From NCBI GenBank assembly GCA_965219685.1, contig CBDCOH010000002.1:3008001-3072000 (forward strand): a stretch of DNA of 64,000 nt, given 5' to 3'. The position numbers were made by a program, and so were the translations under genes. Below are positions 14,184 to 62,760 of the stretch, one piece after another. The notes under the pieces are model-generated. The model was not told the DNA's origin, made no database searches, and worked only from the letters and a program-made list of their open reading frames with translations. This DNA is from Candidatus Spongiisociaceae bacterium (GTDB lineage Bacteria > Actinomycetota > Acidimicrobiia > Spongiisociales > Spongiisociaceae). How positions within the stretch are numbered: position 1 is the stretch's first letter; each line of letters begins with the position of its first letter.

Positions 14184-15443
<1,260 letters not shown>

Positions 15444-19942: not shown

Positions 19943-20310
<368 letters not shown>

Positions 20311-35070: not shown

Positions 35071-36506
35071 ACCACCAAACACGACACGTATCGCCGCCAC
35101 CCGCCGATGCTCCCCATACACCTTCGACCGACCAAGCCGAGTAGCCAACATGCAATCATTCGCACCGGCACCGTCCCTCTCGTTAAGACGCGGCGACAGT
35201 GCTGCCGGTTGAACTCCACCCAGCCGAGATCCCCGAGGTCGTCAGGCTGGAACCTGCTCAGAGCCATACTCACCGCGGTGTCCGTAGCGAATCGTGTTAC
35301 CGCGGAGGGTGCGGCCCTGCAGCCGGAACTCGACCACCTGGGAGTAACCCTCGAGGTTCGAGAACGCTTGAAGGGGGCTGTCATAGCCTTCGTTCCTGGG
35401 TTCAGTGATCAACACCGTTCCGGCAGGGATCGCTCAACGGGCTAGAACTGGAGTTCTTGGGATGCTGCGGCGGGGCCGGCAGACGGCCGTGGACTTCCGG
35501 CGGGTGCGCACAGGTCCGCCCGGCGGACGGACATGCGCCGCTGTTGGCGGCTCCAAGGGGTCGGGGCGGCTCGCTCTCCGGGGCTGGAAGCCGCCCTCGA
35601 CCAGGGTTCGCTGAACGTCATCTCGGACCGTGATAGTCCCGGTCAACGGCCCCAGACCGTTACCGGGCCCGATGCGGGGATGACACGAAATCCCAGGTCA
35701 GAGGGAATCGCGCGCGCTCGCGCGCGGGCCGCGGCTAGGTTCGGGAACATCGGCTGGTTCCTGCGCCACAGATGTCGGCGGGCGGACGAACGGGGAGGGG
35801 ACGGACAAGCCGCAGTATCGGGCAAGAGACTGTCGACAACTGCCTGTTTCCCCAGGTAGACAGGCATTTGGAGAGGGAGCCGATCGTACCCGGTCTCACT
35901 ATCCGGTAATACTTGGTGATCGGAGAGGTGACGAGCGACACTTGGACGCCGACTACCCAGTACCGACCCAGTCTCGACGAATTCAAGGCGGGGATGCGGT
36001 AGCAGCATTGCCCGTTGCCGCCACTTGCGGGCTTGCGTCGGCAGTGATGTTGGTGCCCAGCCGATGGTGTGATACTGAGGTCGGATCCGGGTTCCCAACC
36101 CGTAGTACTCATCGGCGATCACCAGTCCGAACATGGCCAACGCCTGGTTGATGTCGATGCCACCGGCTACGAGCTTCTGGAAGGACTGGTTCCGTCGTGC
36201 CAAGTCGAACCTCGTAGGCCTAACGGCGGCGGGGCGAGCACTGAGTCTCGATGAGCCGCTTTCAATTCCGACCGACCCGACCGACGCGGCCAAACGCCCG
36301 ACAGCGACAGCCACATCGGCGTTCACTCCGGTATATCGTCTCCAGTGTTGTGTACTATCGGTTATTACTACTCACCGTCGGCTAGGGCACTGCGAGCGAT
36401 CCGACGTTCGGTACCTAGCCAGCGGGCCGCATCTCCACGGCCATACGCTACTATTCCGCCTTGTCATCAGCCCGCACCGTGCCGCCTATAGGAGCTTCGA
36501 CTGTCC

Positions 36507-39146
36507 ATGGATCCAAGTACCGCCGTCAGTTCGGCCGTAATCTTACCCCTCCGGAGGATGTGGGAACGCGTCGACCGAACTGCACCCGAGTCTGACGTCG
36601 CCTACTTTTATGACCTTCTTAACTTAGGTGAACTTCTGCTAAAATTGGTTGTCGCTGCGTTGGTCACGTCGATCGATAACCGGGATGGCCACCGATATCT
36701 TTTGGAACGGAGCCTTATTCATGCTAATGGTCTAGGTGTTTGGGTGTCTGCTCTTGATGAAGCCCTTAGCGGGCCATCTCGTACGATGATGAGAAGAGAG
36801 GCATATCCGTACCAGCAGGAAATCACTCAGAAATGGTCCCCGACCGAGCAGGCCTGGCAACGAGATGCTATCGAGTATCTAGACCTTACATGTCGGGAGA
36901 TCGATCGAGATCTACCTCAGCCACCACCCAAGGTCTCCCTTGAGTGGTGGTTTACGACCTTCGTCTTGATCCGCAACCGTACGCGTGGGCACGGATCGAC
37001 TCTACCTGGTAAGTCCGCAGTAGCCGCCGTCCCACTTGCCAAATCACTCAGTATCGTTACAAATAATCTCGCTACCTTACGCATACCTTGTGCAGTGATC
37101 CGTCGCAATCTCTCGGGAAAATATAGGGTCGTCCCATTGACAGCACTCGACGATACCCTTAAGGTATTAAAGCAAAAGACTACCCTCAGTTACCCAGACG
37201 GAGTCTACTTTAGTCTTGGCGATCTGCGCTTGACTCCTGTATGCTACACTGACATTGATCTTAGCGATGTCCACATCGCTAACGGCGACTTTCGCCCGTC
37301 TTCCGAGGGAGCCACTTATGAGGTACTCTCCTATATAACCGATAGTCGGGAGCACATTGATGGTTCTGACTACTTGGAACTTATTCGGCAACGTACCGAT
37401 AGCGAAACTCACGGTACATCTGATTTGGAAGTGATCGGTAAAAGTTTCACTAACCTGCCGCCACAGGCCGACGGATACGTTACACGCACTGTGCTAGAGC
37501 AAGAGCTAACCACCGTACTACTTGATGAGCGGCACCCTATGGTGAGTTTGGTAGGCCGTGGGGGAATAGGCAAGACATCTCTTGCTCTTAAGGTACTCCA
37601 CGAACTGTGTCACACGGACGCATTCGATTTTATTCTCTGGTTTAGTGCGCGTGACATAGATCTATTGTCTGAAGGGCCACGAAGCGTTCGACCACAGGTC
37701 TTAACGTTCACAGAGATTGCTAAAGAGTTCATTGCTCTTCTCCGAGACTATGACGTGGGCGATACGACTCTTGACGCGGACGAGTACCTTACGCGCACCC
37801 TTTTGGGTGAACTGACAGGTTACCGCTATTTGGTGGTTGTTGACAACTTCGAGACTGTGCGCAATCCCAAGGAACTCTTTCGTACACTTGATACCCATGT
37901 GCGTCTACCGAACAAGGTTCTAATAACGGGTCGCCACCGGGATTTCAAGGCAGACTATCCCGTCGAGGTGACCGGAATGGTCCGCTCGGAGTATGACGAG
38001 TTGGTCCGCTCCCTCGCCATTAGGCTCAATATATCATCATTGTTGTCCACCGACTACCGGACGAACTTGTATGAGGAGACGGAAGGGCATCCATATCTGA
38101 TCAAGGTGATACTTGGTGAAGTAGCGACGAACCGTAGAGCTACCAATGTTCAGCGCGTGCTTGCTCATCGAGATCGGATGCTTGATGCACTGTTCGAGCG
38201 GTCCTATGCGACCCTGACACCAGCAGCACAGCGTGTCTTCTTGACACTTTGTAATTGGCGCTCTGTAGTATCACAACTCGAACTAGAAGCTGCTCTCATG
38301 CGACCACAGGCTGACTATCTCGACGTCACGACAGCTGTTGACAGTTTGTCACGATACTCAATGGTGGAGGTTCTCAGGAGCCAATCGGACATCGCATTCT
38401 TACGGGTACCCGACGCTGCAAGGATCTTCGGGAAGAAGAAGCTGAAGGTTAGTCATGTGAAGCCGGTCGTCGATGTTGACACTCGAATCCTCCAGACGCT
38501 AGGCGACGTCCGGACCGGTGACATTCGTCGAGATTTCCATCACAGGCTCACTCGGATTTCTCACAATGTAGCTAAGCGAGCTGCACTGGAAGAAGATGTA
38601 AGCACTTATATGGCTATTCTAGAGTATATTGCAACTATCTACCCGCGCGCTTGGCTCGCCATCGCTGGTCTTCGCTTGGAGAATCCCCAGCTTGGTGACG
38701 CGATAGCTTCCCTGGATGCTGTGGAACGATATCTGCAGGAGGCCCCGGATGATGCAGACGCATGGCGAAGGTTGGCAACCTCAGCCCGGGACTTAGACAT
38801 GCACGATCGTGAAATGAATGCTCTGTACCGTTTAGCCAATCTCCCTGGTGCACCTCTTGAGAGCGTATCACGGGCGGCGGCGTGCCTGAGTCGCCACTGG
38901 GTAAGTGGCTTGACGAACGTTGGCCTTGACGAGAAACGGCTTATGGCAAGGCGGCTAGCCCAGTTGATGAGTTCCAAACGATCCGGGGCGAACGGAACCG
39001 ATTTCTCCCGTCTAGCTTGGCTTCATCTCTACCTTAAGGAGGCACACGAAGCTCGTGCGTGTGTTCAAGAGGGTCTGGAGACTGACCCAGGCAATACACA
39101 CCTGCTTAAGCTAGAGTACCGCCTCAGTGAAAAATCTTGGAGTTGA
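36507..39146 (+). CDS. STAND/NB-ARC P-loop ATPase with C-terminal TPR-like repeats
   Basis: GRGGIGKT, LVVVDNFE, LITGR, GHP motifs; lower GC than the flanks. Confidence 0.85.
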   Translation: MDPSTAVSSAVILPLRRMWERVDRTAPESDVAYFYDLLNLGELLLKLVVAALVTSIDNRDGHRYLLERSLIHANGLGVWVSALDEALSGPSRTMMRREAYPYQQEITQKWSPTEQAWQRDAIEYLDLTCREIDRDLPQPPPKVSLEWWFTTFVLIRNRTRGHGSTLPGKSAVAAVPLAKSLSIVTNNLATLRIPCAVIRRNLSGKYRVVPLTALDDTLKVLKQKTTLSYPDGVYFSLGDLRLTPVCYTDIDLSDVHIANGDFRPSSEGATYEVLSYITDSREHIDGSDYLELIRQRTDSETHGTSDLEVIGKSFTNLPPQADGYVTRTVLEQELTTVLLDERHPMVSLVGRGGIGKTSLALKVLHELCHTDAFDFILWFSARDIDLLSEGPRSVRPQVLTFTEIAKEFIALLRDYDVGDTTLDADEYLTRTLLGELTGYRYLVVVDNFETVRNPKELFRTLDTHVRLPNKVLITGRHRDFKADYPVEVTGMVRSEYDELVRSLAIRLNISSLLSTDYRTNLYEETEGHPYLIKVILGEVATNRRATNVQRVLAHRDRMLDALFERSYATLTPAAQRVFLTLCNWRSVVSQLELEAALMRPQADYLDVTTAVDSLSRYSMVEVLRSQSDIAFLRVPDAARIFGKKKLKVSHVKPVVDVDTRILQTLGDVRTGDIRRDFHHRLTRISHNVAKRAALEEDVSTYMAILEYIATIYPRAWLAIAGLRLENPQLGDAIASLDAVERYLQEAPDDADAWRRLATSARDLDMHDREMNALYRLANLPGAPLESVSRAAACLSRHWVSGLTNVGLDEKRLMARRLAQLMSSKRSGANGTDFSRLAWLHLYLKEAHEARACVQEGLETDPGNTHLLKLEYRLSEKSWS

Positions 39147-40056: not shown

Positions 40057-42002
40057 CCCGAGTTTGGCGGGTGTTTTGTGTTTTGCCTGGTCAGGGGGGA
40101 TTTGGGGTTGGGGTGTTTCCACTACATTGGCGGTGTGGGGGCTGGTGAGGGGGTTTAGGTGATGGTGGCTTTGTCCCAGGTGCGGGTATCTGCTCCGATG
40201 GCGGTGAGGGTTCGGGTTTGTAGGGGGCTGCGGCGGGTGGTGAGATGGATTCGGCGGCCGCTGGTGGTGAGTTGGTGGCGGCGGACACGGTTGAGGTCGC
40301 GCAGGGCTCGGGCGGCGGTGAGGTGCTGGTCTGCGAGGTCGGGGTCACGAACGTCGGCTGCTGCGAGAGCTTGGCTGATGAGGGTCTCGATTAGAGCGGC
40401 GTAGACACAGACCGCGACGTGGCCGCGGACTCGTTGTTCGGTCCAGTGTCTTATGGGGCGGAGCCGTAGGAAGTCTTTGAGGACCCGGAAGCGGGTTTCG
40501 ACTGCTTGCAGTTGGCGGTAGTAGTCCACGACTTGGGCGGTGGGGGCCTGGGTGGGTGTGAGGCTGGTAGCTAGCACGTAGCGGCCAGCGAGGAGCTCTT
40601 CGTATACGTGGGCGTCTTCGTTGTAGTGGTAGAGAAACCGTCCAGGTTCGATCTCGACGTCGAAGAGCCGCCCAGCCCCAACAGTGGCGAGGATACGCTG
40701 CGCGGCTGCCCCGATCTTGGCGGGGTCCTTCAGCCGGCCGGCACGGACGCGGAGCTCCAGCGCCCGCAGTTCGGTTTCGGCGGCGGCGACGATCTGGCCT
40801 GTGCGGGCGGTGTCTCGGCGGGCGCGGGCGTCGGATTCGACCACAACCGCCCGGGTGCCGTCCTCGAGGGTGATATCGGCGGCGCGGCAGCCGCGCTGGG
40901 GGAGGTCGACCCAGACGGTGTCGTCATCAAGAGCGCCAAGGGCTTGTTTGCTGATACGGTCACGACGCAGCTTTGTGGCCAATAGGTGGTCGAACCCGGC
41001 TTCGGCGACCGCCTCCACGTTGGCAGCTGACATCAGGCCCCGGTCGGCGACTACACAGATCCGGCCCACCGCGAACCTCGCCGCTAAGTCGCCCAACACG
41101 GCGGCCAGGGTGGTGGCGTCGCTGGTGTTCCCCGAGAACACATGATGGGCGATCGGGATCCCGTCGGAGGTGCATAGGAGGCCGATCACTATCTGGGGAC
41201 GATCAGCACGATGGTCCCGCGAATACCCGAACGCCCGGGAGGGGAACCGTCCAGAGGACCGTGTCGAACCCTCGAAATATGTGGAAGTCAGGTCGTAGCA
41301 AACCAGCCGCAGGTCCAGGTTCGTCAAGTCGCACAACCGGGCATACAGATGCGTCTCCGTTTGGTCTTTGGAGGCGGCGACCGCGTCCAGAGCCCGGTAA
41401 TACTGATCAAGGGACGGAGCCGACCAGCCGTCGGGCATCACCACATCCACCCCAGCCCACTCGGCCAGCCGCCGCTTCGAGCACGGCGCCACCAGGCGGT
41501 TTGCCACCATCGCGAACACCGCATGCTCCAGAGCCTTCGCGCCCCGCCTCGCGCCGACCTGAGCGAACCACTCCCCGAGGCCCAGCCGCTGCCACACCGA
41601 CCACACCGCCGCTACCGCCCCCACCGCAGGCGCCCCCTCAGCTGCCAACCCGCCGACATCGACACGTTCCCGCACCAGATGACGCTCCAGGGCGGCGACG
41701 ATGCGTTCCAGCTGACCGGACTCGCGCAAAGCGGTCACCTCCCCCAGCCGCAGAAGGGTCCGGTGACCGACCTTCGACCCGTGGCGGAAAGACTCCACCA
41801 AAGACAAATACTCGTACACCTTGTCGCCCCTGCGACGGCGGGTCGTCTTCACGAACATACCCAGAACCATACCACTAACAGCCCACCTATCCAACCATAT
41901 GTCGCCCCTACAAATCCCCACCCAAACCGTGCCCTACACCAAGAAACCCCAGGTCAGAGAACCGACCACCCCCACAAAGCCCCCCAACCCGCCAAACTCG
42001 GG
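40057..42002 (-). mobile_element. IS1634-family element with 5-bp TSD TCGGC
   Basis: IRs CCCGAGTTTGGCGGG; TSD at 40052-40056 and 42003-42007. Confidence 0.92.
40155..41858 (-). CDS. IS1634 transposase
   Basis: YDLTSTYFEG, GYSRDHR, VADRG, VETRFRVLK. Confidence 0.92.
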   Translation of the reverse strand: MFVKTTRRRRGDKVYEYLSLVESFRHGSKVGHRTLLRLGEVTALRESGQLERIVAALERHLVRERVDVGGLAAEGAPAVGAVAAVWSVWQRLGLGEWFAQVGARRGAKALEHAVFAMVANRLVAPCSKRRLAEWAGVDVVMPDGWSAPSLDQYYRALDAVAASKDQTETHLYARLCDLTNLDLRLVCYDLTSTYFEGSTRSSGRFPSRAFGYSRDHRADRPQIVIGLLCTSDGIPIAHHVFSGNTSDATTLAAVLGDLAARFAVGRICVVADRGLMSAANVEAVAEAGFDHLLATKLRRDRISKQALGALDDDTVWVDLPQRGCRAADITLEDGTRAVVVESDARARRDTARTGQIVAAAETELRALELRVRAGRLKDPAKIGAAAQRILATVGAGRLFDVEIEPGRFLYHYNEDAHVYEELLAGRYVLATSLTPTQAPTAQVVDYYRQLQAVETRFRVLKDFLRLRPIRHWTEQRVRGHVAVCVYAALIETLISQALAAADVRDPDLADQHLTAARALRDLNRVRRHQLTTSGRRIHLTTRRSPLQTRTLTAIGADTRTWDKATIT

Positions 42003-43039
42003 TCGGCCTTGCGTCGGGTGACGTAGGCTTTCGTGGCGGGGTCGGTACGCATCCGGTTGGTGGCGATCCGCCATAGCGCGTTGTTGGCTTGGCGGTTGCC
42101 GCCCTGGTTGAGCCGGTGGCGGATGGTCTGTCCGGATGATGCGGGGACGGGGCTGGTGCCGCAGAGGGCAGCGAAGGCTGCCTCGGTGCTCATGCGTTGG
42201 GGGTTGTCGCCCGCGGCTATAAGCAGAGCTGCTGCTGTGTCAGGTCCGACCCCACGAGCTGCCAGAAGCGCCGGGTTTGCCTGGGTGCAGAGACGGCGGA
42301 TCTCCGTGTCGAGGTCGGCGATCTCGGCAGTCAGCGACTGGTATCTGCGGGCCAGGTGCCGCAGGGCACGTTTCGCGTGGGTGGTGGTGGTGTGGTCTGT
42401 GCCGGGTCGGAAAGCGGCGCAGACCCGCACCCGGGCTTTGAGATTCTTGCCTCGGAGCTGGTTCTTTACCGACTCTGGGGCTGTTACCACCAGGGCGTGG
42501 ATCTGGTTAGCGGCCTGCGTGCGGGCTTTGGTGGCGGATCGGCGTACCACCCGCAGCATCCTGATCGACTCCACAGGCCCATCGGCGGTCTTAGGGCGGG
42601 CTGTCGCTTCGCCGTTAAGAGCAGCCCGAGCGGCGGCTTCGGCATCGGTGGAATCGGTCTTGCCCCGGCGGCGGCGTAGCTGGCGGTTGGGACGATTCAC
42701 CTCCACCACCTCGATGCCGACCTCGGTGAGGTGACGGGCCAACCCTGCCCCGTAGCTACCCGTTCCTTCCACCCCGACCCGGATCAGGCAGCCCTGCGAT
42801 CCCATCCAGGCGACCAACCCCCGATACCCGACACCATCCGCCGCGAACGACTCAGACCCCAGCAGCCGGCCTGCGTTATCAACCACCGCCCCAACATGGA
42901 GATCCCGATGCGTGTCCACTCCGCCGACCACAACCCCCTCGGTTCGAACCTTCTCTGCCATGATGCCCTCCCTCCGTGGGCCGCTTAGAATCCAACCCCC
43001 TGGCCCGGGCAGAGCGGCGGACAGAACACTCTGTGAGTA

Positions 43040-51754: not shown

Positions 51755-54700
51755 TCACGACCGGGTTCCCGGCCCGATTGATGCATTTTGCGTGGCCCAG
51801 TCGACTCCGTCGGGTGCTGGGGTTGGTGTGTGGCCCCAGCAGGTGATGGTTCCGTCGCTGCCTAGCCCGCAGAAGTGGGAGTCACCCGCGGAGATGGCTG
51901 TGTAGGTCCCGCCGGGTACGTTGACCGCACGGTTGCCGCAGGTGATGGTTCCGTCGGTGCGTAACCCGCACGGATAACTGTCCCCGCTGGCCAATGCAGC
52001 GAACCTACCGTCGAGTGGCATAGTGGTTCCCCGGTTTGTCGTGCAGCTGATGGTCTGGTCGGTGCGTAGCCCACACGTATACCTAGGCCCGGTCGATACC
52101 GCCGTGAATGTCCCTTCTGGTGGTTCGGGTACCTCCGAGTCCTCAGCGCCCCAGCATGCAATGGTCTGGTCGGTGCGTAGCCCGCACGCATACGCTCCGA
52201 TGGAAACGGCGACAAACGTCCCTTCTGGTGGTTCCGACAAGCCGCCCCCCGCCGGGGTTCCCCAGCATGCAATGGTCTGATCGGTGCCTATCCCGCAGGA
52301 AGACTCATAGCCACTGCTGACAGCGGTGTAGGAGCCTTCGGGACGGTACTCCGAGAAGACCATGCAAGACCATCTGCCGTAGCTCGGAACACACTTCGGG
52401 ATCGCTCCCCAGCAGATTACGGTTCCGTCCGTGCGTATCCCGCACGAATGGGTCCTGCCGCTGCTCACCGAAGTGAACGTCCCGGGCGGCGGTTCGGCTT
52501 GGCCCGAGTTGTTGGCTCCCCAGCAGGTAATCGCCTGGTCGGCTCCTATTGCACAAGAATGGGTCCTGCCGCTGCTCACCGCGGTGAACTGTTCGTTAGC
52601 TTTTGGGGGGGAGACCACCCACAAGCTCCTGTCGCCCCAGCAGGTGATGTTGCCTCCCGCGCGTACCCCGCAGGTGTACCGCTGGCTAGCAGCGACCGAG
52701 GTGAACTTCCCAGGTGGCGGCTCCGCCTCGCCTCTGTTGTTGGCGCCCCAGCAAGTGACGGTTCCGTCGGCGCGTAGTCCGCACGAGTGGGTGTAACCGG
52801 CGGTGACGCTGACGAACCTGCCCCCGGGCGCGTCGGTTTGCCCACCGACGAAACCGTGTCCACGTGAGTTGTTACCCCAGCACTTGACCGTCTGGTCGGT
52901 TCGCAGCCCGCAGGTGTGACCACCGTCGATACTGCCACCCGCCGAGATAGCTGTGAACAGCCCTTGGGGCGGGTCGGTAGCGCCGGCGTGGTTCCAGCCC
53001 CAGCAGACCACGGTCCCGTCGGTTCGCAGCCCGCACGAGTGCCTGAAACCGGCTGTTACTGCGGTGAACCGCCCATCAGGAGCGTCCGCCTGTCCGTCTG
53101 TGTTGGTGCCCCAACAGGCAATCGTCTGGTCGGTTCGTAACCCACAGGAGTGGTCTCCGCCTCCGTAGGTAGAGATCGAGGTGAACTTTCCTTCCGGAAC
53201 ATGGACCCGGGTGGTGCCGTCCCAGTTACCCGACCAGCAGACGACTATCTGGTCGGGGCGTAGCCCACACGAGTTGCTAGCACCGGCTGTGACCGCGGTG
53301 AAGGGTCCGGGAGGTGGGTCCACCCCGCCGTCCCTGTTCGGGCCCCAACAAGCGACGGTTCCCTCGGTTCGGAGCCCACAGGTGTGGGAGTCTCCGGTGG
53401 CTACCGCGGTGAAGGTCCCAGATGGTATCCCCGCCTTACCGCCGTGATCGTATGCCAAGCAGGCAATGGCCCCATCCGACAACACCTCACACGAATGCGA
53501 CCAGCCCATCCCGGAGAAAGACCCAAACGGCGGCGACACCTGCCCAGACTTGTTGCTACCCCAGCAGATGATCGTATGGTCGGTTCGGAGCCCACACGAA
53601 TGCGACCCACCCGCTGATACCGCCGTGAAAGTCCCCGCCGGTGCCTCTGTCCGCTCCTGCCAGTTGCTACCCCAGCAGATGATGGTGTGGTCGGTTCGGA
53701 GCCCACACGAATGCCTTTCACCGGCTGATACCGCGGTGAAAGAACCCGCTGGTGCGTCCGCCCGTCCCCACGCGTTGCTGCCCCAGCAGATGATTGACAG
53801 GTCCGACAGCAGCCCGCACGAATGCGACTCACCAGCGGCTACTGCCGCGTAAGATCCGGTGGGTGCCTCTGTTTGTCCTGATGTATTGGCGCCCCAGCAG
53901 ATGATCGTGTGGTCGGTTCGGAGCCCACAGGTGTGGGAGTCTCCGGCGGATACCGCGCTGAAAGATCCAGGCGGTGCCTCTGTCTGTCCCCATGAGTTGG
54001 CACCCCAGCAGATGACGGTGTGGTCGGTTCGGAGCCCACAGGAGTGCGACCTACCGGCGGCTACTGCCGTATAAGACCCGGCCGGTGCCTCTGTCTTCCT
54101 CTCCCAGTTGCTGCCCCAGCAGGTGACCGATCCGTCCAGCAGTAGGCCACACAAGTGCGAGTAACCGGCGGACACCGCGGTGTAGGACCCAGACGGGGGT
54201 GACAGCTGTTGGTCGTCGGGCCAGCAGGTGACTGATCCGTCGGACAGTAGCCCACACGAGAAGTCCCCGTGACCGGCGGACACCGCGGTGAAATCCGAGC
54301 CGGAGGTACCTGCCTCTGGGGTTTCGCGACCGACCGTAGAAGCCCGCCGCAGGAACGTGGCCATCTGAGCGCGGGTAACCGGCTCGTCAGGGCAGAACCG
54401 CGGTGGCTCGGTCGCGCATCCCGCTGTAACCCCAGCAGCCCATAACGCCTCGATGTTCGCCTCGTGCCTGTTGCCGCCAGTATCTACAAAGCCCGCGCCA
54501 GACGCCACTGCGTCAGCCAGCCCGTACGCCCGCTGCAGGAACGTGGCCATCTGAGCGCGGGTAACCGGGTCGTCAGGGCAATAGCGGAGCGGCCCGGTCG
54601 CGCATCCCGCTGTGATCCCGGTCTCCGCTAGACGCTCAACATGATCCTGCCACCAAACCCCCGCCTCAACATCGGCAAACCCCGAGCCGGCCGCCGGGAC

Positions 54701-55075
54701 CGGATCCCCACCATCGAGAATCCGTACCAGCCACACAGCCATGACCCACCGCAGCAGAGGCGCCCCCGGACAGAACTCACCATCCCCACACTCAGTACTC
54801 TCGAACACTCCCTCAGACGCCAAGCGGCGAATGGCCTCAGCATGCACCGACCCATCGTCCACATCCTCGAACCCCCCAACAGCACCAACAGCACCACCCG
54901 ACCACCCGAACTCCCGTGCTCCTGCCGCGGATGGAACAGCTACAGACACCACCAGCATCGACACAACCGAAAGTACCAGACCAACACGACCCGCCCCACC
55001 CAAATCAAACCTCCCTGCGGCCGCCACCGGATGTTCGACCATCCTAAGAGCCGGACTCACGCCAACCGCCTCCAA
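51755..55075 (-). CDS. SLH + RCC1-repeat surface protein (start uncertain)
   Basis: SLH motifs and many CWG repeats; shares idiosyncratic inserts with 10087-12390. Confidence 0.9.
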   Translation of the reverse strand: MEAVGVSPALRMVEHPVAAAGRFDLGGAGRVGLVLSVVSMLVVSVAVPSAAGAREFGWSGGAVGAVGGFEDVDDGSVHAEAIRRLASEGVFESTECGDGEFCPGAPLLRWVMAVWLVRILDGGDPVPAAGSGFADVEAGVWWQDHVERLAETGITAGCATGPLRYCPDDPVTRAQMATFLQRAYGLADAVASGAGFVDTGGNRHEANIEALWAAGVTAGCATEPPRFCPDEPVTRAQMATFLRRASTVGRETPEAGTSGSDFTAVSAGHGDFSCGLLSDGSVTCWPDDQQLSPPSGSYTAVSAGYSHLCGLLLDGSVTCWGSNWERKTEAPAGSYTAVAAGRSHSCGLRTDHTVICWGANSWGQTEAPPGSFSAVSAGDSHTCGLRTDHTIICWGANTSGQTEAPTGSYAAVAAGESHSCGLLSDLSIICWGSNAWGRADAPAGSFTAVSAGERHSCGLRTDHTIICWGSNWQERTEAPAGTFTAVSAGGSHSCGLRTDHTIICWGSNKSGQVSPPFGSFSGMGWSHSCEVLSDGAIACLAYDHGGKAGIPSGTFTAVATGDSHTCGLRTEGTVACWGPNRDGGVDPPPGPFTAVTAGASNSCGLRPDQIVVCWSGNWDGTTRVHVPEGKFTSISTYGGGDHSCGLRTDQTIACWGTNTDGQADAPDGRFTAVTAGFRHSCGLRTDGTVVCWGWNHAGATDPPQGLFTAISAGGSIDGGHTCGLRTDQTVKCWGNNSRGHGFVGGQTDAPGGRFVSVTAGYTHSCGLRADGTVTCWGANNRGEAEPPPGKFTSVAASQRYTCGVRAGGNITCWGDRSLWVVSPPKANEQFTAVSSGRTHSCAIGADQAITCWGANNSGQAEPPPGTFTSVSSGRTHSCGIRTDGTVICWGAIPKCVPSYGRWSCMVFSEYRPEGSYTAVSSGYESSCGIGTDQTIACWGTPAGGGLSEPPEGTFVAVSIGAYACGLRTDQTIACWGAEDSEVPEPPEGTFTAVSTGPRYTCGLRTDQTISCTTNRGTTMPLDGRFAALASGDSYPCGLRTDGTITCGNRAVNVPGGTYTAISAGDSHFCGLGSDGTITCWGHTPTPAPDGVDWATQNASIGPGTRS

Positions 55076-55600: not shown

Positions 55601-58600
55601 CGCATCGGGTCCACACGCCCAGGACGTGGTACCAGAAGTGGGACTTCAACCGCCCGGTCGTTAGCCAGCGCACGGTTCAGCTGGCGGTTCGCCGTTTGCA
55701 GCAGCGGACAGCACATCCGTCACCGGTAACCAATCACCCCTCATCGTTAGGACCACTTAGTCTATGTGTATTCCCGCGGTCCAGAGAACGGAGGCGGCTG
55801 CTCTTCGATGCCCTTCGTATCGCCTCCGAGTGGATCAAGCTGAGGTTGTTTTGGTTCCGATCGTGTTGCTGTGACAGAGCCTGATGGATGAGGAGCGAGC
55901 GCTTAGGAACGGGTGAGGCGCTTGCCTTTCGTAGGATTCGTCGTCGTGGGCGGGCTACCGATGTTAGTCGTGGGTTGATGATGGTGCTTCCCTTCCCACG
56001 ACTGACGACGTTTCGCTGGTCTGTAGACTCACCGGGACGGAAACGTCGGTGAAGGCTGAGCGGGTACAGTTGAGTTGGTGACGGCGTGGACGTGTCGTGT
56101 GGTTGCTGGTCGGTGGGTAGCGTTGGTGGTGGTGTCGGCTGTTGTCGGAGTTGTGGTGGGGGTAGGGGTTTCTGCACCAGCTGCGGCTGCTGATTCTGGT
56201 TCGGGGTTTTCGGATATTGGTGAGGCTGGGTCTCATCGGGGTTCTGTGGAGGCGTTGGCGGCTGAGGGTGTTCTGGCGGGGACGGAGTGCGCTCCGGAGA
56301 TGTTCTGCCCTGCTGAGCCGGTCCACCGGTGGGTGATGGCGGTCTGGCTGGTTCGGGTGATCGACGGCGCAGACCCCGACCGGTCAGGGGTGTCCCGGTT
56401 CGCGGATGTGGGTGCGGGCGAGTGGTGGGCGCCTCATGTGGAGCGTTTGGCCGAGTTGGGTGTTACTGCTGGTTGCGCTACCGGGCCGTTGCGGTTCTGC
56501 CCGTCCGAGGCTGTTACCCGCGCTCAGATGGCGTCGTTCCTGGTTCGGGCTTTCGGCCTTCCGGAGGGTTCGTCTGGTGAGTTCGCCGACATTGACGGAG
56601 ATGCTCACGCGGCGAATATCGATGCGTTGGCGGCTGCTGGTGTGACATCGGGCTGCTCGACCGATCCGCTCCGATACTGCCCTGGTCGGGATACCACTCG
56701 GGCTCAGATGGCAACGTTTCTGAGCCGTGCTCTGCAGTTTGGTTCGTCCAGACCGGTTGAGACACCGGAGGGTGGGGGGTTCAAAGCGGTTTCGGCTGGT
56801 AATGGTTTCTCGTGCGGGATCCGCGCCGATGGGACGGTTGCCTGCTGGGGTGCGAACTGGAGGGGTCAGGCAACCGCCCCGGAGGGGGAGTTCAGCACGG
56901 TAACCGCTGGCTTTGAGCACTCGTGTGGGGTACGCAGCGACGGGACTGTTGCCTGCTGGGGTGGGAACTGGGCCGGTCAGACCGATGCCCCCGAGGGGAA
57001 GTTCAGCACGGTTTCTGCCGGGTTTGGGCACTCGTGTGGGGTACGCACCGATTGGAGCGTTGTCTGCTGGGGCCAGAACTCCCATGGCCAGACCGACGCT
57101 CCCGCGGGCAAGTTCACCACAGTGTCCGCCGGATGGGCACATTCGTGTGGCGTACGCAGCGACCGCAGCGTTGTCTGCTGGGGAGACAACACCCATGGCC
57201 AGACCGACGCTCCCGGCGGCAAGTTCAGCGCCGTTTCCGCGGGACAGTCGCATTCGTGCGGGATAGGTAGCACTGGAAGGGTTGTCTGCTGGGGTGCGAA
57301 CTGGTGGGGTCAGGCTTCCGCCCCCGGGGGGAGGTTTAGCGCTGTCTCCGCGGGACGATCGCACTCGTGTGCGCTGTTTGATGATGCAACGGTTGCCTGC
57401 TGGGGTACCAATACCGATGGCAGAGCCGACCCACCCGACGGCCAGTTCACCAGCGTGTCCACTGGATGGGCACATTCGTGTGGGCTGTTTGATGATGCAA
57501 CGGTTGCCTGCTGGGGCAACGACAACGATCGCCGAGCCGGCCCGCCCGAAGGTGGGTTCAGGTCGGTATCGGTGGGAGGTGGGCACACATGCGGGATCCG
57601 CACCGATGGGACCGTCGCATGCTGGGGTTACGGCGCCGGTGGGCCTTTCGACCTATCGGACGGCAAGTTCATGAGTCTGGCTGTCGGGTTCGCTCATTCA
57701 TGTGGGATCCGCACCGACGGCACCGTTGCATGCTCGGGAGCCGATGCCGATGGCCGAACAGAGGCTCCGCGAGGAGAGTTCCGGTTGGTATCGGCAGGGT
57801 TTGCTCATTCATGTGGGATCCGCACCGATGGGACGGTCGTCTGCTGGGGCCAGAACTCCGATGGTCAGACCGATGCACCCGAGGGCAAGTTCACCACAGT
57901 GTCCGCCGGATGGGCCCACTCTTGTGGGATCCGCACCGATGGGACGGCTGTCTGCTGGGGTAACAACTGGGCGGGTCGCGCTGACGCTCCTAGCGGGAGT
58001 TTCAACGCTGTATCGGCCGGGAATGGGCATTCGTGTGGGATCCGCACCGATGGGACGGCTGTCTGCTGGGGAATCAACTGGGCGGGTCGCGCTGACGCTC
58101 CTAGCGGGAGTTTCAACGCTGTATCGGCCGGGGATGCGCATTCGTGTGGGATCCGTACCGATCGGACTGTTGTCTGCTGGGGGGACAACACCGACAGCCG
58201 AGCCGACGCACCCGAAGGCAAGTTCAGCGCGGTTGCCGCCGGGTGGGCGCATTCGTGTGGTGTCCGGTCGAGCGGGATCCCAGACTGTTGGGGCCGCGAC
58301 CCGGTTGTCCCGTTTCCCGCCGGTGTGCGACAAGCCGCATGGCCCGGGGGTCCGGACCCGCAGATGTGTCGTCCTAGGGGAGTGGAACGTCACACAGCCG
58401 GTTTCCCCCTCCCAGGCTGGGCGGTGCCGCCTAGCGGGAAACTACGGGTAGCGGTCCTCTTTGTGGACTTCCCCGACGCGGTGGCCCGACACTCCACCCA
58501 GCGCGAAGCCGCCGGGCGGTTGCGGGAGGTCGAAGAGCGCATCGAGCGTTACAGCTACGGAAAACTAGAAGTCGAGTTCGGAGTGCTACATGGCTGGCTG

Positions 58601-59121
58601 CGCGCCCAACATGGCTACAGGCACTACGAGGCTGACTCTGTGGCAGGTGGAGTCCAGATCGAGGCGGACACCGTCAGGGAGGCTGTGCGGCTCGCCGACG
58701 ACCGTTTCGACTTCGCCGGCTACCACCAAGTACTGGTCGTCGCACCCAGTTCACACTTCGGGGGCGGCGTCGCCGTTGACGGAGTCCACACCGATGAGGG
58801 ACCGATCGGCCGAGCGGCCGTGATCAACTCTTACAGACATGACAAGGACACAGACCCCAACGACTGGAGTTATGCTGCAGCTCACGAAATCGTCCACGGA
58901 CTCGGACTGCTAGACCTGTATCCCTTTGACCAGGCGCGGCACCGGCAACCAGCTCCCCCCAGAGACCGCAAATGGGTACCCTCCAGGTTCGGTCTCATGA
59001 ACCTATGGGCCTACTTCCTCACAGACGAAAGAGACCCACGCCTCGCGCTTACTTGGCATTGGCCCGACGGCAACACCACCACCGATCTGAACCGCCCCGG
59101 TTACCCCGGAGACTCGATTAG

Positions 59122-60380
<1,259 letters not shown>

Positions 60381-61061
60381 AACACTCTCCGGCAAACCCG
60401 GGGCGGTTCAATCACAACCTGGGTTCAGTGCTGGCTGAGGAAATGCTGGCGTGGAGTCGCTGGCAACTCGGTTGGCTCGAACCCGACCAAGTCCTGTGTG
60501 TCACCGACAAACACACAACCGTAACCCTGACTCCTGTTGCCGACCCCGGCCGGGGCACAGCAATGGTCGCAATCCCCCTATCCAGGTCCGAAGTCATCGT
60601 CATCGAGAGCCGACACAGGATCGGCTATGACAAGGGCCAAGAATACCAAGCCCCGAACGGGGCGCAGACCACCTTTCCAGCCCTCCTCACCGAGGGCGTC
60701 CTCGTATACACAGTCGACGCCACCCTCGGATCAGGGAACCTACCTGTGAAAGTGGCTGGCGACTCGGGAAACGGACAAGTAGACGACTACCCCATCCTCA
60801 CCCGCGGCCAGAGTGTCACCACCCACGGCTACACCATCACCGTGATCTCTACAACACCCAACACCACGATCACAATCACACAAGAGTGAATCCTCCTGAG
60901 CCGCGCTGAACATCCGTGGGTTAGGTAGGGGCCCTTCGCGTGTGTGGGCGTTGGGCCCCCCTTCCTGTTGTGTTGGTGGGTCCCGGCAGCCGTTTTGTTG
61001 TGGTGGTGGCTGGTGGGGGTCGAGTAGCTGTTTGAGGTTGACCCGCTTTGGTGGACACTAC

Positions 61062-61086
61062 TCTCCGGCAGACCCGGGGCGGTTCA
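61062..61086 (+). mobile_element. Orphan IS3 right IR
   Basis: TCTCCGGCAGACCCGGGGCGGTTCA. Confidence 0.7.
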
Positions 61087-61289
61087 CCCCTTCCAAACCC
61101 GAGTCATCACCCGAATCCCCGACTAGCCCCCATCCCTCCTAGCCGACCGAACCTACCCCCCAAACCGTCCCACAACACCCCGACCCGGAGGGCCGGAGAA
61201 CCCGCCGGCACAGACACCCTACGAACGCGACTACCCCCTCGTCAGATACCCACCTCAGCAACCCATAACGGGGTAGGTCGATCGTCGGG

Positions 61290-61432
61290 GTGGCAGCAGG
61301 ACGGGACCGGTGCCCGCAGCCAGACCCCGGTCCGACCTGTCCGCTCTGGATGTCCATGCCGTGCGCTGCCGCGCCATGCCTGGCGGTGCCATGCCAAGCT
61401 TTCCGTGCCTTGCCAAGCCAAGCCCCGCCTCG
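61290..61432 (-). ncRNA. Putative guide-like ncRNA: GGC-NN pentamer array plus 3' hairpin
   Basis: Lies directly after the stop of the RAMP-like gene; array followed by a GGACCGG/CCGGTCC stem. Confidence 0.65.
61351..61429 (-). repeat. Tandem 5-nt repeat array (constant GGC, variable NN), 16 units
   Basis: GGCgg GGCtt GGCtt GGCaa GGCac GGAa AGCtt GGCat GGCac CGCca GGCat GGCgc GGCag CGCac GGCat GGAca. Confidence 0.9.
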
Positions 61433-62029
61433 CTAGTCGACCGTTTCGATGTTCTCCACTTCGAAGCGTCCGTACTGTCCCGACTTCTGGGGTCGCCAGT
61501 CCCCGATCCCGAGCCGCCGCCCACCGATGTCCAGCCAGGTGAGCAGCTGGTCACGGTCGACGAGTTCGTCGTCCACATCGACGACGAAAGTGACCGCCCA
61601 CCGCTCGAACCGGGCCCGGGTGCGCAACACTCGGCGGCCGTTCACCATCACCCCGGTCGTGAACTGGCAACTACGCGCCAACTCGGCGGCGGTGGTACCC
61701 AGCGACTGGTCGTAGTCGAAGGCCTCGACCGTCTGGACGTTGAGTCCTTCCCGTACTAGCGGTCCCTGGCGGAGTTTTCGGGCGGCGTACTCGATGTTTG
61801 ACCGAAGCGCCGCCGCCGGGACCGTAGGCGCTCCGATCTCGTCGAGGTAAAGCGAAACGAGGCACTCCAACTCCCGGAGGCGGACCTCGTCGGTCTCTGT
61901 CCGGTTACCCGCCCGTTTCTTGGTGATCTCCGCCTTCTCGATGTTGGCAGCCGATCGGGTGTCCAATCCGGCCGCTCCGTTGTTAGTGATGAGGGGGCTA
62001 ACACCCCGAATTGTGATCCGATACCGCAT
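61433..62029 (-). CDS. Solitary Cas7/RAMP-like protein (candidate RNA-guided effector)
   Basis: ITIRGVSPLI (first strand + SPL), PTVPAAALRSNIEYAA (IPGSSLKG-like), GIGDWRPQKSGQYGRFEV (G-rich loop); RBS GGAGGT upstream. Confidence 0.75.
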   Translation of the reverse strand: MRYRITIRGVSPLITNNGAAGLDTRSAANIEKAEITKKRAGNRTETDEVRLRELECLVSLYLDEIGAPTVPAAALRSNIEYAARKLRQGPLVREGLNVQTVEAFDYDQSLGTTAAELARSCQFTTGVMVNGRRVLRTRARFERWAVTFVVDVDDELVDRDQLLTWLDIGGRRLGIGDWRPQKSGQYGRFEVENIETVD

Positions 62030-62391
62030 TCCGCGATCACCTCCCTAAAGCGAGCCACGAACTCATACACGCTGCCCCCAGCCCGACTGAACCGGCGCAG
62101 GCTGGTAGCCAGCCGATGACACAGCGAACACAAACCCACCAGATCCGACGCCACGAGCTTGGGCCGCCCACAGCAGGCGTCGTCCCGCCCGCACGGATAC
62201 ACCAGGGCGCTGTGATGCGCTTCTGCGGCTGCTCGGAGCCCGCAGAAGGAACAGCAGCCCCCGTTACGGGCCAACACGTAGGACCTCAACAGCAGGTACC
62301 TCGGCCCGTACGCATCCCCGCAACGCGCCACGACCGGCTTGTCCGCCCTGGCCGATACACGGTCCGGCGCCGATCCTTGCTCTGTGTTCAC
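61756..62391 (-). CDS. HNH-like Zn-binding endonuclease (domain in the first ~110 aa; tail overlaps the RAMP gene)
   Basis: VLARNGGCCSFC...EAHH...DLVGLCSLCH; RBS GGAGGT upstream. Confidence 0.65.
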   Translation of the reverse strand: MNTEQGSAPDRVSARADKPVVARCGDAYGPRYLLLRSYVLARNGGCCSFCGLRAAAEAHHSALVYPCGRDDACCGRPKLVASDLVGLCSLCHRLATSLRRFSRAGGSVYEFVARFREVIAECGIGSQFGVLAPSSLTTERPDWTPDRLPTSRRRRSPRNGRVTGQRPTRSASGSWSASFRFTSTRSERLRSRRRRFGQTSSTPPENSARDR

Positions 62392-62414
62392 CCGTCGGGA
62401 CCTCCCCGGGCTTC

Positions 62415-62495
62415 ATGGTACCGTAGCCCTATAGGCCTATGGTACCATACCATAGTAAGGGATAGAAGGGATCCGGTGGTTAGGGTCGGTACCAT
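62415..62495. promoter_or_regulatory. Divergent control region with three GGTACC-centred palindromes
   Basis: ATGGTACCGT (62415), TATGGTACCATA (62438), TCGGTACCAT (62486), plus ATAGGCCTAT (62431). Confidence 0.55.
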
Positions 62496-62523
62496 CGGGG
62501 CGTACCCGATCCCCCTTCTCAGT

Positions 62524-62760
62524 GTGAGTGTCCGGCACCCAGACCACAGCGATATCGAGCAGCAGACCCTCCAAGCGTGGGAGACCTATCGGAGGGCTAA
62601 TCGGGCGCGTGTGGAGGCCTCGGCCGCTGTGGACGCGAAACTCGCTGCTGCCCGCTCGGAGGGGGTTTCCATGTATCGGATGGCCAAATGGCTCGGAGTC
62701 ACTGAACGGGCGATCAAGGTACGGCTCGAGAAGTACGACCGAACACACCCCAAGCCCTGA
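62524..62760 (+). CDS. Small HTH DNA-binding protein (start uncertain)
   Basis: AARSEGVSMYRMAKWLGVTERAIKVRL. Confidence 0.7.
   Translation: MSVRHPDHSDIEQQTLQAWETYRRANRARVEASAAVDAKLAAARSEGVSMYRMAKWLGVTERAIKVRLEKYDRTHPKP

Follow-up and report, generated by a model that had tools for sequence, protein, structure and literature searches.

The vipr gene, its array and its neighbour

The stretch of DNA analysed here (the window, 64,000 nucleotides (nt) in length) comes from a Candidatus Spongiisociaceae bacterium and corresponds to C2:3008001-3072000, C2 being contig CBDCOH010000002.1 of a two-contig genome with 65% G+C. Close to the end of the window lies a compact locus, entirely on the reverse (-) strand, which we assign to the VIPR (Viral Interference Programmable Repeat) family and which comprises the gene vipr, an array of 5-nt repeats behind it and an HNH-nuclease-like gene in front of it. 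The open reading frame (ORF) of vipr occupies window positions 61433-62029 (-), stop codon included, and encodes a RAMP protein of 198 amino acids (aa); a Shine-Dalgarno sequence, AGGGAGG (62040-62046, -), can be read 10 nt before its ATG. The stop codon TAG (61435-61433) is followed by CGA, and 3 nt past the stop begins the array (61351-61429, -), which counts 16 units of a 5-nt GGC/NN period and is followed by a hairpin.

From the sequence and a scan for GGY/NN runs the array resolves into two putative vrRNA tracts on the (-) strand, each with a mark behind it. Tract a (61405-61429) has five GGC-NN units, GGCGG GGCTT GGCTT GGCAA GGCAC, with the NN series GG TT TT AA AC. It is followed by the 9-nt mark GGAAAGCTT (61396-61404; GGAA at 61404-61401 plus AGCTT at 61400-61396), which recurs in relatives. 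Tract b (61356-61395) has eight units, GGCAT GGCAC CGCCA GGCAT GGCGC GGCAG CGCAC GGCAT, with the NN series AT AC CA AT GC AG AC AT, and ends in a terminal mark, GGACATCCA (61347-61355; first unit GGACA at 61355-61351), comparable to GGACATCGT in locus L006 and GGACATCGA in locus L004 at their tract ends. A GC-rich stem-loop (61293-61344, -) closes the array. An earlier sequence-only reading of this DNA had described the 198-aa protein, the array with its coordinates, 16 units and NN list, and the hairpin, and all of these can be read from the sequence as it claimed. It had also called the gene solitary, which does not hold, since a conserved HNH-like gene lies directly upstream. A promoter scan at the locus found none, and Rfam gave no family match at E <= 1 in window 60800-62600.

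The vipr product matches phrog_4652, a PHROGs family of unknown function (E = 1.9e-31), and of 1617 candidates from a large protein collection 814 are relatives at E <= 0.001; Pfam, NCBIfam and PADLOC gave no family match for it. An alignment of 33 vipr homologues (A1) served as the basis for a profile, for residue conservation and for an AlphaFold2 (AF2) model. Searched against the PDB, the profile has a sole match at E <= 1, chain 36pp_D 'SUSP1 Vipr protein' (E = 6.9e-19, residues 4-193), and no Cas chain. With tblastn the window protein matches 146 phage records, including 77 Escherichia, 17 Mycobacterium and 8 Gordonia phages, at an identity of ~20-30% to the phage homologues. The AF2 model (predicted local distance difference test, pLDDT, 88.8; predicted TM-score, pTM, 0.83) has as its best structural matches in VIA-align a Csm subunit (Z = 10.9, root-mean-square deviation 3.3 over 136 residues), followed by a Cmr-beta subunit (Z = 10.4) and Csm3 (Z = 9.3). 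Foldseek returned 39 matches at E <= 0.001 (best 1.3e-4), and the top matches listed are CRISPR RAMP chains.

In the model a beta-hairpin (122-141) bears R136 and R138, and a loop (G174-P180) comes after a helix (159-173). R136, T137, R138, G174, G176, D177, W178, R179 and P180 are invariant in all 33 aligned sequences, and R138, D177, W178 and R179 align to residues of identical number in SUSP1 Vipr. The structure preprint names H17, D177, R138, W178 and R179 as the GGY contacts of Vipr and describes silencing as abolished by D177A and by R138A (10.64898/2026.04.26.720927). Four of these five GGY-holding residues are present in the window protein. By profile match and predicted model, the window protein is thus homologous to the solved SUSP1 Vipr and has a RAMP fold with RRM core, glycine-rich loop and thumb hairpin. 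The RAMP fold claimed by the sequence-only reading is borne out by the model and by its Csm and Cmr top matches, and the Foldseek check that it proposed has hereby been run; the resemblance to a VIPR-type architecture that it had pointed out agrees with the match to 36pp_D.

In a scan for GGY/NN runs over both strands of the whole 4.42-Mb genome, tract b is the top run (score 11) and tract a ties for second place (score 10). Both tracts exceed the four adjacent GGY/NN (YNNGG) units demanded of a VIPR array. Tandem Repeats Finder reports just weak period-10 and period-20 rows at the array, in line with two variable positions in every five. Among 57 loci encoding vipr relatives, collected from 2 genomes, 3 viral contigs and 52 metagenomes, a GGY/NN tract of at least five units within 300 nt downstream of the gene is present at 32 of the 54 with at least 60 nt after the gene, versus 4 of 736 control windows taken from the same loci; a tract upstream was found at 7 of 53. 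Tracts compiled from the window and 15 closer loci (29 distinct ones, 306 units in all) show near-random entropy at both NN positions, with 1.83 and 1.97 bits. The compilation leaves out L003, which has nothing downstream, L005, which is identical with L004, L013-L015, where an array is lacking downstream, and L083, and the low entropy of array positions 1-3, which were chosen by the caller, is partly built in and not independent evidence. In G007, a genome from the same genus, an intact vipr is accompanied by 15 array units whose NN series differs entirely from that of the window, and here too the ending is GGAAACCGA. At four low-GC metagenome loci of ~30% identity (L022-L024 and L043) a downstream 5-nt rhythm appeared to the eye, its constant part not being GGY; alternative repeat units are known in VIPR according to the preprints of 2026.

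A constant triplet with free dinucleotides, repeated by homologous genes on unrelated contigs, rules out slippage and a conserved peptide as sources of the array, and is described as the signature of vrRNA (10.64898/2026.04.26.720920). The sequence-only reading had judged the array unlike a slippage microsatellite and had expected homologues with downstream arrays of differing NN, and both expectations agree with the loci collected here. The possibility that it had named against itself, an array encoding a conserved peptide, is contradicted by tract lengths and contents that differ between loci.

The closing stem-loop folds at -35.6 kcal/mol (z = -1.87; 9 of 200 shuffles fold equally well) and could act as a 3' cap or terminator. 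A hairpin after the last tract is found at other loci as well, with differing sequences, and that of the window is not conserved in sequence in relatives. The fold of the whole region has z = -0.38, and what lies 3' of the repeats is a short recurring GGA mark plus a sequence-variable hairpin.

The upstream neighbour, here called the vap candidate, is a 211-aa ORF (61756-62391, -) that is identified as HNH-nuclease-like by PHROG and profile matches, Foldseek and its conservation upstream of vipr. It lies on the same strand as vipr and overlaps it by 274 nt, in which its C-terminal ~90 residues are encoded. The protein has the pattern CxxC...HH...CxxCH with conserved Cys and His and a conserved core at about residues 26-124. 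Matches to PHROG HNH families are weak (phrog_740, E = 4.4e-4), and a profile of seven orthologues finds the HNH domains of IscB (E = 1.8e-5), ZRANB3 (4.3e-4) and Cas5-HNH (6.3e-4) in the PDB. The model is poor as a whole (pLDDT 58.5) and good in the core only, and the top Foldseek matches are HNH domains, all weak (E >= 0.07) and none at E <= 0.001. Orthologues occur upstream of vipr at 9 of the 15 related loci with at least 400 nt upstream (L001-L007, L011 and L012), and none was found upstream of vipr in L009, L010 and L013-L016. At all nine loci the frame has no stop before the vipr start and enters vipr by 232-298 nt in the same relative frame. In the window this part (61756-62029, -) encodes a tail rich in Arg and Ser, modelled as disordered. 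Shuffles of synonymous codons at the nine loci (P = 0.03-0.52) did not show selection for an open vap frame within vipr, and complex prediction for Vipr and the HNH protein (run scores 0.35, 0.00 and 0.00) gives evidence neither way. A small ORF with a helix-turn-helix-like product (62116-62760, +) is not conserved beside vipr homologues.

Proposed mechanism, array boundaries and targets

We consider the locus best explained, with a probability of about 0.9, as a VIPR system on a bacterial chromosome, in which an operon of an HNH-nuclease-like vap and vipr is followed by a vrRNA array. In the published mechanism one protomer is described for each repeat, with pairing through NN and a skip of one base in the target (10.64898/2026.04.26.720927; 10.64898/2026.04.26.720920). 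By homology to SUSP1 the array would be transcribed with vipr or just after it, and Vipr protomers would polymerise on this RNA, one on each 5-nt unit. Each GG and pyrimidine would be gripped by the G-loop (G176-D177-W178-R179) and the thumb (R136/R138), and the exposed NN dinucleotides would pair with double-stranded DNA that reads NN-x-NN-x, if the skip of one base per unit also applies in this clade; tract b would then recognise ATnACnCAnATnGCnAGnACnAT. The bound DNA would likely be cut or nicked, not repressed alone, because the partner in this sub-clade is an HNH nuclease. From transcription and processing to DNA binding, nuclease action and target, these are steps that we infer by analogy with the published system. 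The sequence-only reading had placed one protomer on each GGC and taken the NN pairs as a gapped guide, which fits the mechanism as the preprints describe it.

Within the array, the mark between tracts has a recurring form, GGA followed by mostly A/T bases and often CG, and divides tracts in L001, L004, L006, L008, L012 and L018. In closer relatives the separators are nine bases long and begin with GGA (GGAAACCGC, GGAATACGG, GGACATCGT, GGAAATCGA and GGATTTCGA), and the tract after the mark has its register shifted by one base. GGA directly follows 16 of the 29 distinct tracts, and of the two marks in the window, GGAAAGCTT parts the tracts and GGACATCCA comes after the last. The single 4-nt unit that the sequence-only reading had noted is therefore present, but as part of this recurring 9-nt mark and not as an irregular unit. 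According to the structure preprint the pocket for the third base, a pyrimidine, excludes purines (10.64898/2026.04.26.720927); because of this we infer that a GGA mark would end each Vipr filament, and hence that, in place of a single 16-unit guide, the window would hold a short one of 5 units and another of 8. The GGA-marked tracts may correspond to the 'staggered arrays' described elsewhere, in which vrRNAs overlap by 1 nt (10.64898/2026.04.26.720920). Were the GGA boundaries true, arrays would be measured out without a Cas6-like processing enzyme, and such short natural guides would bear on the specificity needed by a gapped code.

Targets were sought under the rule that each GGY becomes one free base, by which tract b reads ATnACnCAnATnGCnAGnACnAT; tract a offers just 10 informative bases, too few for a search. 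The target pattern proposed by the sequence-only reading started with the TT of AGCTT and probably spans the tract boundary. In the genome itself, with skips of 0-3 bases, the best match to tract b is 14/16 under the one-base skip, and the perfect match at skip 3 is the array itself. Six sites reach 14/16, versus averages of 1.38 sites at 14/16 or better for 60 unit-order shuffles of the guide and 0.37 for 60 base shuffles. Three of the six are copies of one insertion sequence (IS), leaving four independent sites (Poisson P ~0.05), which we judge not significant. This IS, an IS1634-family element of 1957 bp with terminal inverted repeats, has three identical copies, all outside the window (C2:3117013-3118969, ~3134373-3136330 and ~4049088-4050944). 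In these copies the 14/16 match extends over the opening ATG of the transposase frame (MFVKTT...), and its skipped base falls on the wobble position; as the family model aligns from ~30 codons further in, it is uncertain where translation really starts. We regard the 5' end of the IS1634 transposase as a candidate target of tract b, a lead from sequence matching. Diverged copies with ~88% identity lie in window 40155-42004 and near C2:120540-121669, and the window copy matches tract b at 13/16, as counted by eye.

On viral contigs tract b has 15 exact matches (10 distinct, mostly low-GC), versus 23 for the reversed pattern, which is the chance level. Thus, of the gapped-pattern search in phages and mobile elements that the sequence-only reading had suggested, the viral part yielded chance matches, and the IS1634 site is a lead only. 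At L076 7932-8435 (+), in a viral sequence of 64% G+C present on three contigs, an exact tract b match falls on codons 4-11 of a small ORF beginning MTTITQIASTIDELVH. It lies in a run of small genes, several of them with a common upstream motif, that resembles a phage early region. We found no match of tract a in this viral sequence, and the tract b match may serve as a second lead to a target. The 15-unit guide of the same-genus genome had no match at three or fewer mismatches in 8 genomes of the genus; its first half had one viral match, which fails in the second half. Tract b at one mismatch or fewer was found in none of 29 family genomes.

Genomic setting and competing explanations

The surroundings of the locus are rich in IS elements and include an IS3 with a frameshift pseudoknot, several IS110 transposases and an IS1634-family element. 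The IS3-family element (59122-60380, +) has two overlapping transposase frames and an ALIL pseudoknot (59418-59534, 104 bits) and is separated by ~900 nt from where the VIPR hairpin ends; further ALIL matches at 14480-14596 and 19977-20093 mark more IS3 copies in the window. It is flanked by the ORFs 56075-59248 and 60221-60889, which may be halves of one interrupted gene. The former belongs to a trio of large paralogues flanking the locus (51755-55075, -; 56075-59248, +; L058 6824-9181, -), each encoding SLH domains and 12-13 RCC1 repeats; their 111-nt repeats are the sole strong tandem repeats in the window. Two possible defence genes lie in the vicinity of the VIPR locus, one for an NB-ARC/TPR (STAND-type) protein (36507-39146, +) and one for a 334-aa nucleotidyltransferase that PADLOC matches to the candidate defence families PDC-S09 and PDC-M05A (63495 to past the window end, -; L058 5495-6499).

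Neither a CRISPR repeat family (Rfam gathering thresholds) nor a CRISPR-like tandem array was found in the window, as the sequence-only reading had stated. Its further statement that cas1/2/5/6/8/10 are missing stands in part: we found no evidence of cas membership or of a CRISPR array at the locus in a window that was not scanned for every cas family. A full Cas1 gene lies outside the window, ~196 kb from the VIPR locus (C2:2872770-2873609, +; 296 bits), and therefore the genome also carries a CRISPR-Cas system.

Among 41 related genomes vipr occurs in 3, its own included; the finds in the same genus are one intact copy and two truncated ones, and none was found in the other 33 relatives searched. 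The truncated copies (L082 and L083) belong to one genome, and one has a 7-unit array remnant. This patchy distribution is consistent with a mobile element, and the locus looks like a cassette gained by horizontal transfer, in a part of the chromosome that is itself plastic. About 71% of published VIPR loci are described as viral or proviral and 25.5% as lying in cellular chromosomes (10.64898/2026.04.26.720920), and on account of the latter share the chromosomal setting is no bar to membership in VIPR.

Several observations weigh against the VIPR reading. The window tracts are short, with 5 and 8 units, and the type II vrRNAs are described as having 9-16 repeats (10.64898/2026.04.26.720920). 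Two units of tract b read CGC instead of GGC, and position 16, with which SUSP1 H17 (a G1 contact) aligns, carries Asn in the window protein against His in the majority of homologues. Searches of the own genome, the viral contigs and the family genomes gave no natural target at a significant level. The environment is crowded with IS elements, and a scan of ORFs between window position 36000 and a point ~20 kb past the window end yielded no phage structural gene, the lone PHROG 'tail protein' match lying on RCC1 repeats; the 'viral' part of the VIPR name hence does not apply to this locus. A second, broken vipr fragment lies 60 kb away (C2:3129756-3129982, +), covering residues ~89-164, with a frameshift, an in-frame TGA and no array after it, and together with the IS surroundings it makes some decay of the window copy conceivable. 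The class of the locus, moreover, was reached by elimination from the text description alone: types III-V carry nuclease or helicase vaps and types II, VI and VII DNA-binding ones, the HNH domain is listed in a legend for types II, III and VII, and with the DNA-binding types II and VII set aside the locus fits type III (10.64898/2026.04.26.720920).

Much of this would suit a decaying relic, a locus of VIPR descent that no longer works, with guides too short for specificity in an IS-ridden region. The tracts of only 5 and 8 units, the two CGC units, the Asn at position 16, the IS3, IS110 and IS1634 elements all around, and the frameshifted fragment and the two truncated copies in the same-genus genome are all in its favour. 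However, the vipr ORF is intact, with all family-invariant residues and a strong Shine-Dalgarno sequence, the HNH ORF is open with its Cys and His conserved, and tracts of 4-8 units stand beside long ones in other clade members too, so that we hold a relic to be unlikely. An orphan CRISPR Cas7/Csm3 gene beside an unrelated GC-rich microsatellite, the array being slippage DNA or coding sequence, can be argued from the solved CRISPR RAMPs as best structural matches and from the Cas1 gene elsewhere in the genome. Yet Vipr is the sole PDB match by sequence at E <= 1, without any Cas chain, the window has no CRISPR array, and slippage does not yield an array that recurs by homologues on unrelated contigs with a constant triplet and changing NN, nor can tracts varying in length and content between loci encode a conserved peptide; we regard this explanation as extremely improbable.

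Rivals within the VIPR reading concern the array. The whole 16-unit array might be a single vrRNA in which internal degeneracy is tolerated and the GGA marks set no boundaries, and the family preprint does mention frequent internal degeneracy of vrRNAs and single-vrRNA systems (10.64898/2026.04.26.720920). Against this, tracts at several related loci end in the 9-nt mark and the next tract begins one base out of register, GGA follows 16 of 29 tracts, and the position-3 pocket is described as excluding purines (10.64898/2026.04.26.720927); a single vrRNA seems to us somewhat improbable. A bolder proposal makes the GGA marks vrRNA boundaries in a host-domesticated VIPR that would restrain a transposon instead of serving as a phage weapon. 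The purine of GGA could not enter the pyrimidine pocket and the Vipr filament would stop; the A/T-rich 9-nt mark, as the sole exposed stretch, would be cut by host RNases and leave very short guides, of which the 8-unit one would be aimed at the 5' end of the resident IS1634-family transposase frame. Taken as a whole, this chain of steps appears quite unlikely.

Comparison with known systems

The VIPR reading places the locus in a kind of system that is already in print. Our literature search on VIPR found nothing before the bioRxiv preprints of April-October 2026, which include further reports on the system (10.64898/2026.10.15.759431) and on the recovery of VIPR arrays from 5-nt entropy periodicity (10.64898/2026.10.21.760802). 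The system proposed by the sequence-only reading is hence not new, having been described in these preprints, and its architecture was recognisable from sequence alone, without tools. Thousands of Vipr proteins have already been collected, 664 loci are tabulated with their types in the data of the family preprint (10.64898/2026.04.26.720920), and the window locus is a further member of this family.

The closest solved relatives outside VIPR are of the CRISPR kind. The window Vipr shares with Csm3 and Cmr4, the backbone of CRISPR type III, the RAMP fold, the thumb, the glycine-rich loop and, presumably, the placing of one protomer on each fixed step of RNA. In the type I-E Cascade with Cas5-HNH a RAMP effector carries an HNH nuclease, whose HNH domain ranks with the best matches obtained for the vap candidate. 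Unlike both, the window Vipr has no detectable sequence relation to Cas proteins and a step of 5 nt, not 6, and its locus lacks a spacer-repeat array, adaptation genes, and large and small subunits.

The founding VIPR example, from Escherichia phage SUSP1, is a type II system (10.64898/2026.04.26.720920). With it the window locus has in common a homologous protein (E = 6.9e-19) with the same G-loop and thumb residues, GGY/NN repeats of 5 nt beside the gene and on its strand, the repeats preceding what may be a structured 3' end, and NN that are hypervariable among relatives, all in a minimal locus with one accessory gene and no CRISPR array. It differs in that its accessory gene is an HNH-like nuclease and not the DNA-binding Vap of type II, in a short GGA mark and non-conserved hairpin where SUSP1 has a long conserved tail or pseudoknot, in its shorter tracts (5 and 8 units), and in its chromosomal, IS-rich setting instead of a phage, with ~20-30% identity to the phage homologues. 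Type III, as the family preprint describes it, has a nuclease-type vap, is enriched in defence islands and is aimed at viruses (10.64898/2026.04.26.720920). The HNH accessory gene, the cellular location and the candidate defence genes nearby are likenesses to this type, within an assignment made from the preprint's text. The window locus offers a clean and compact case of the less-studied nuclease-linked chromosomal VIPR in a high-GC bacterium, noteworthy for its intact vipr, for the HNH frame that runs ~90 codons into it, for two apparently very short guides with a recurring mark between them and for the IS-rich surroundings.

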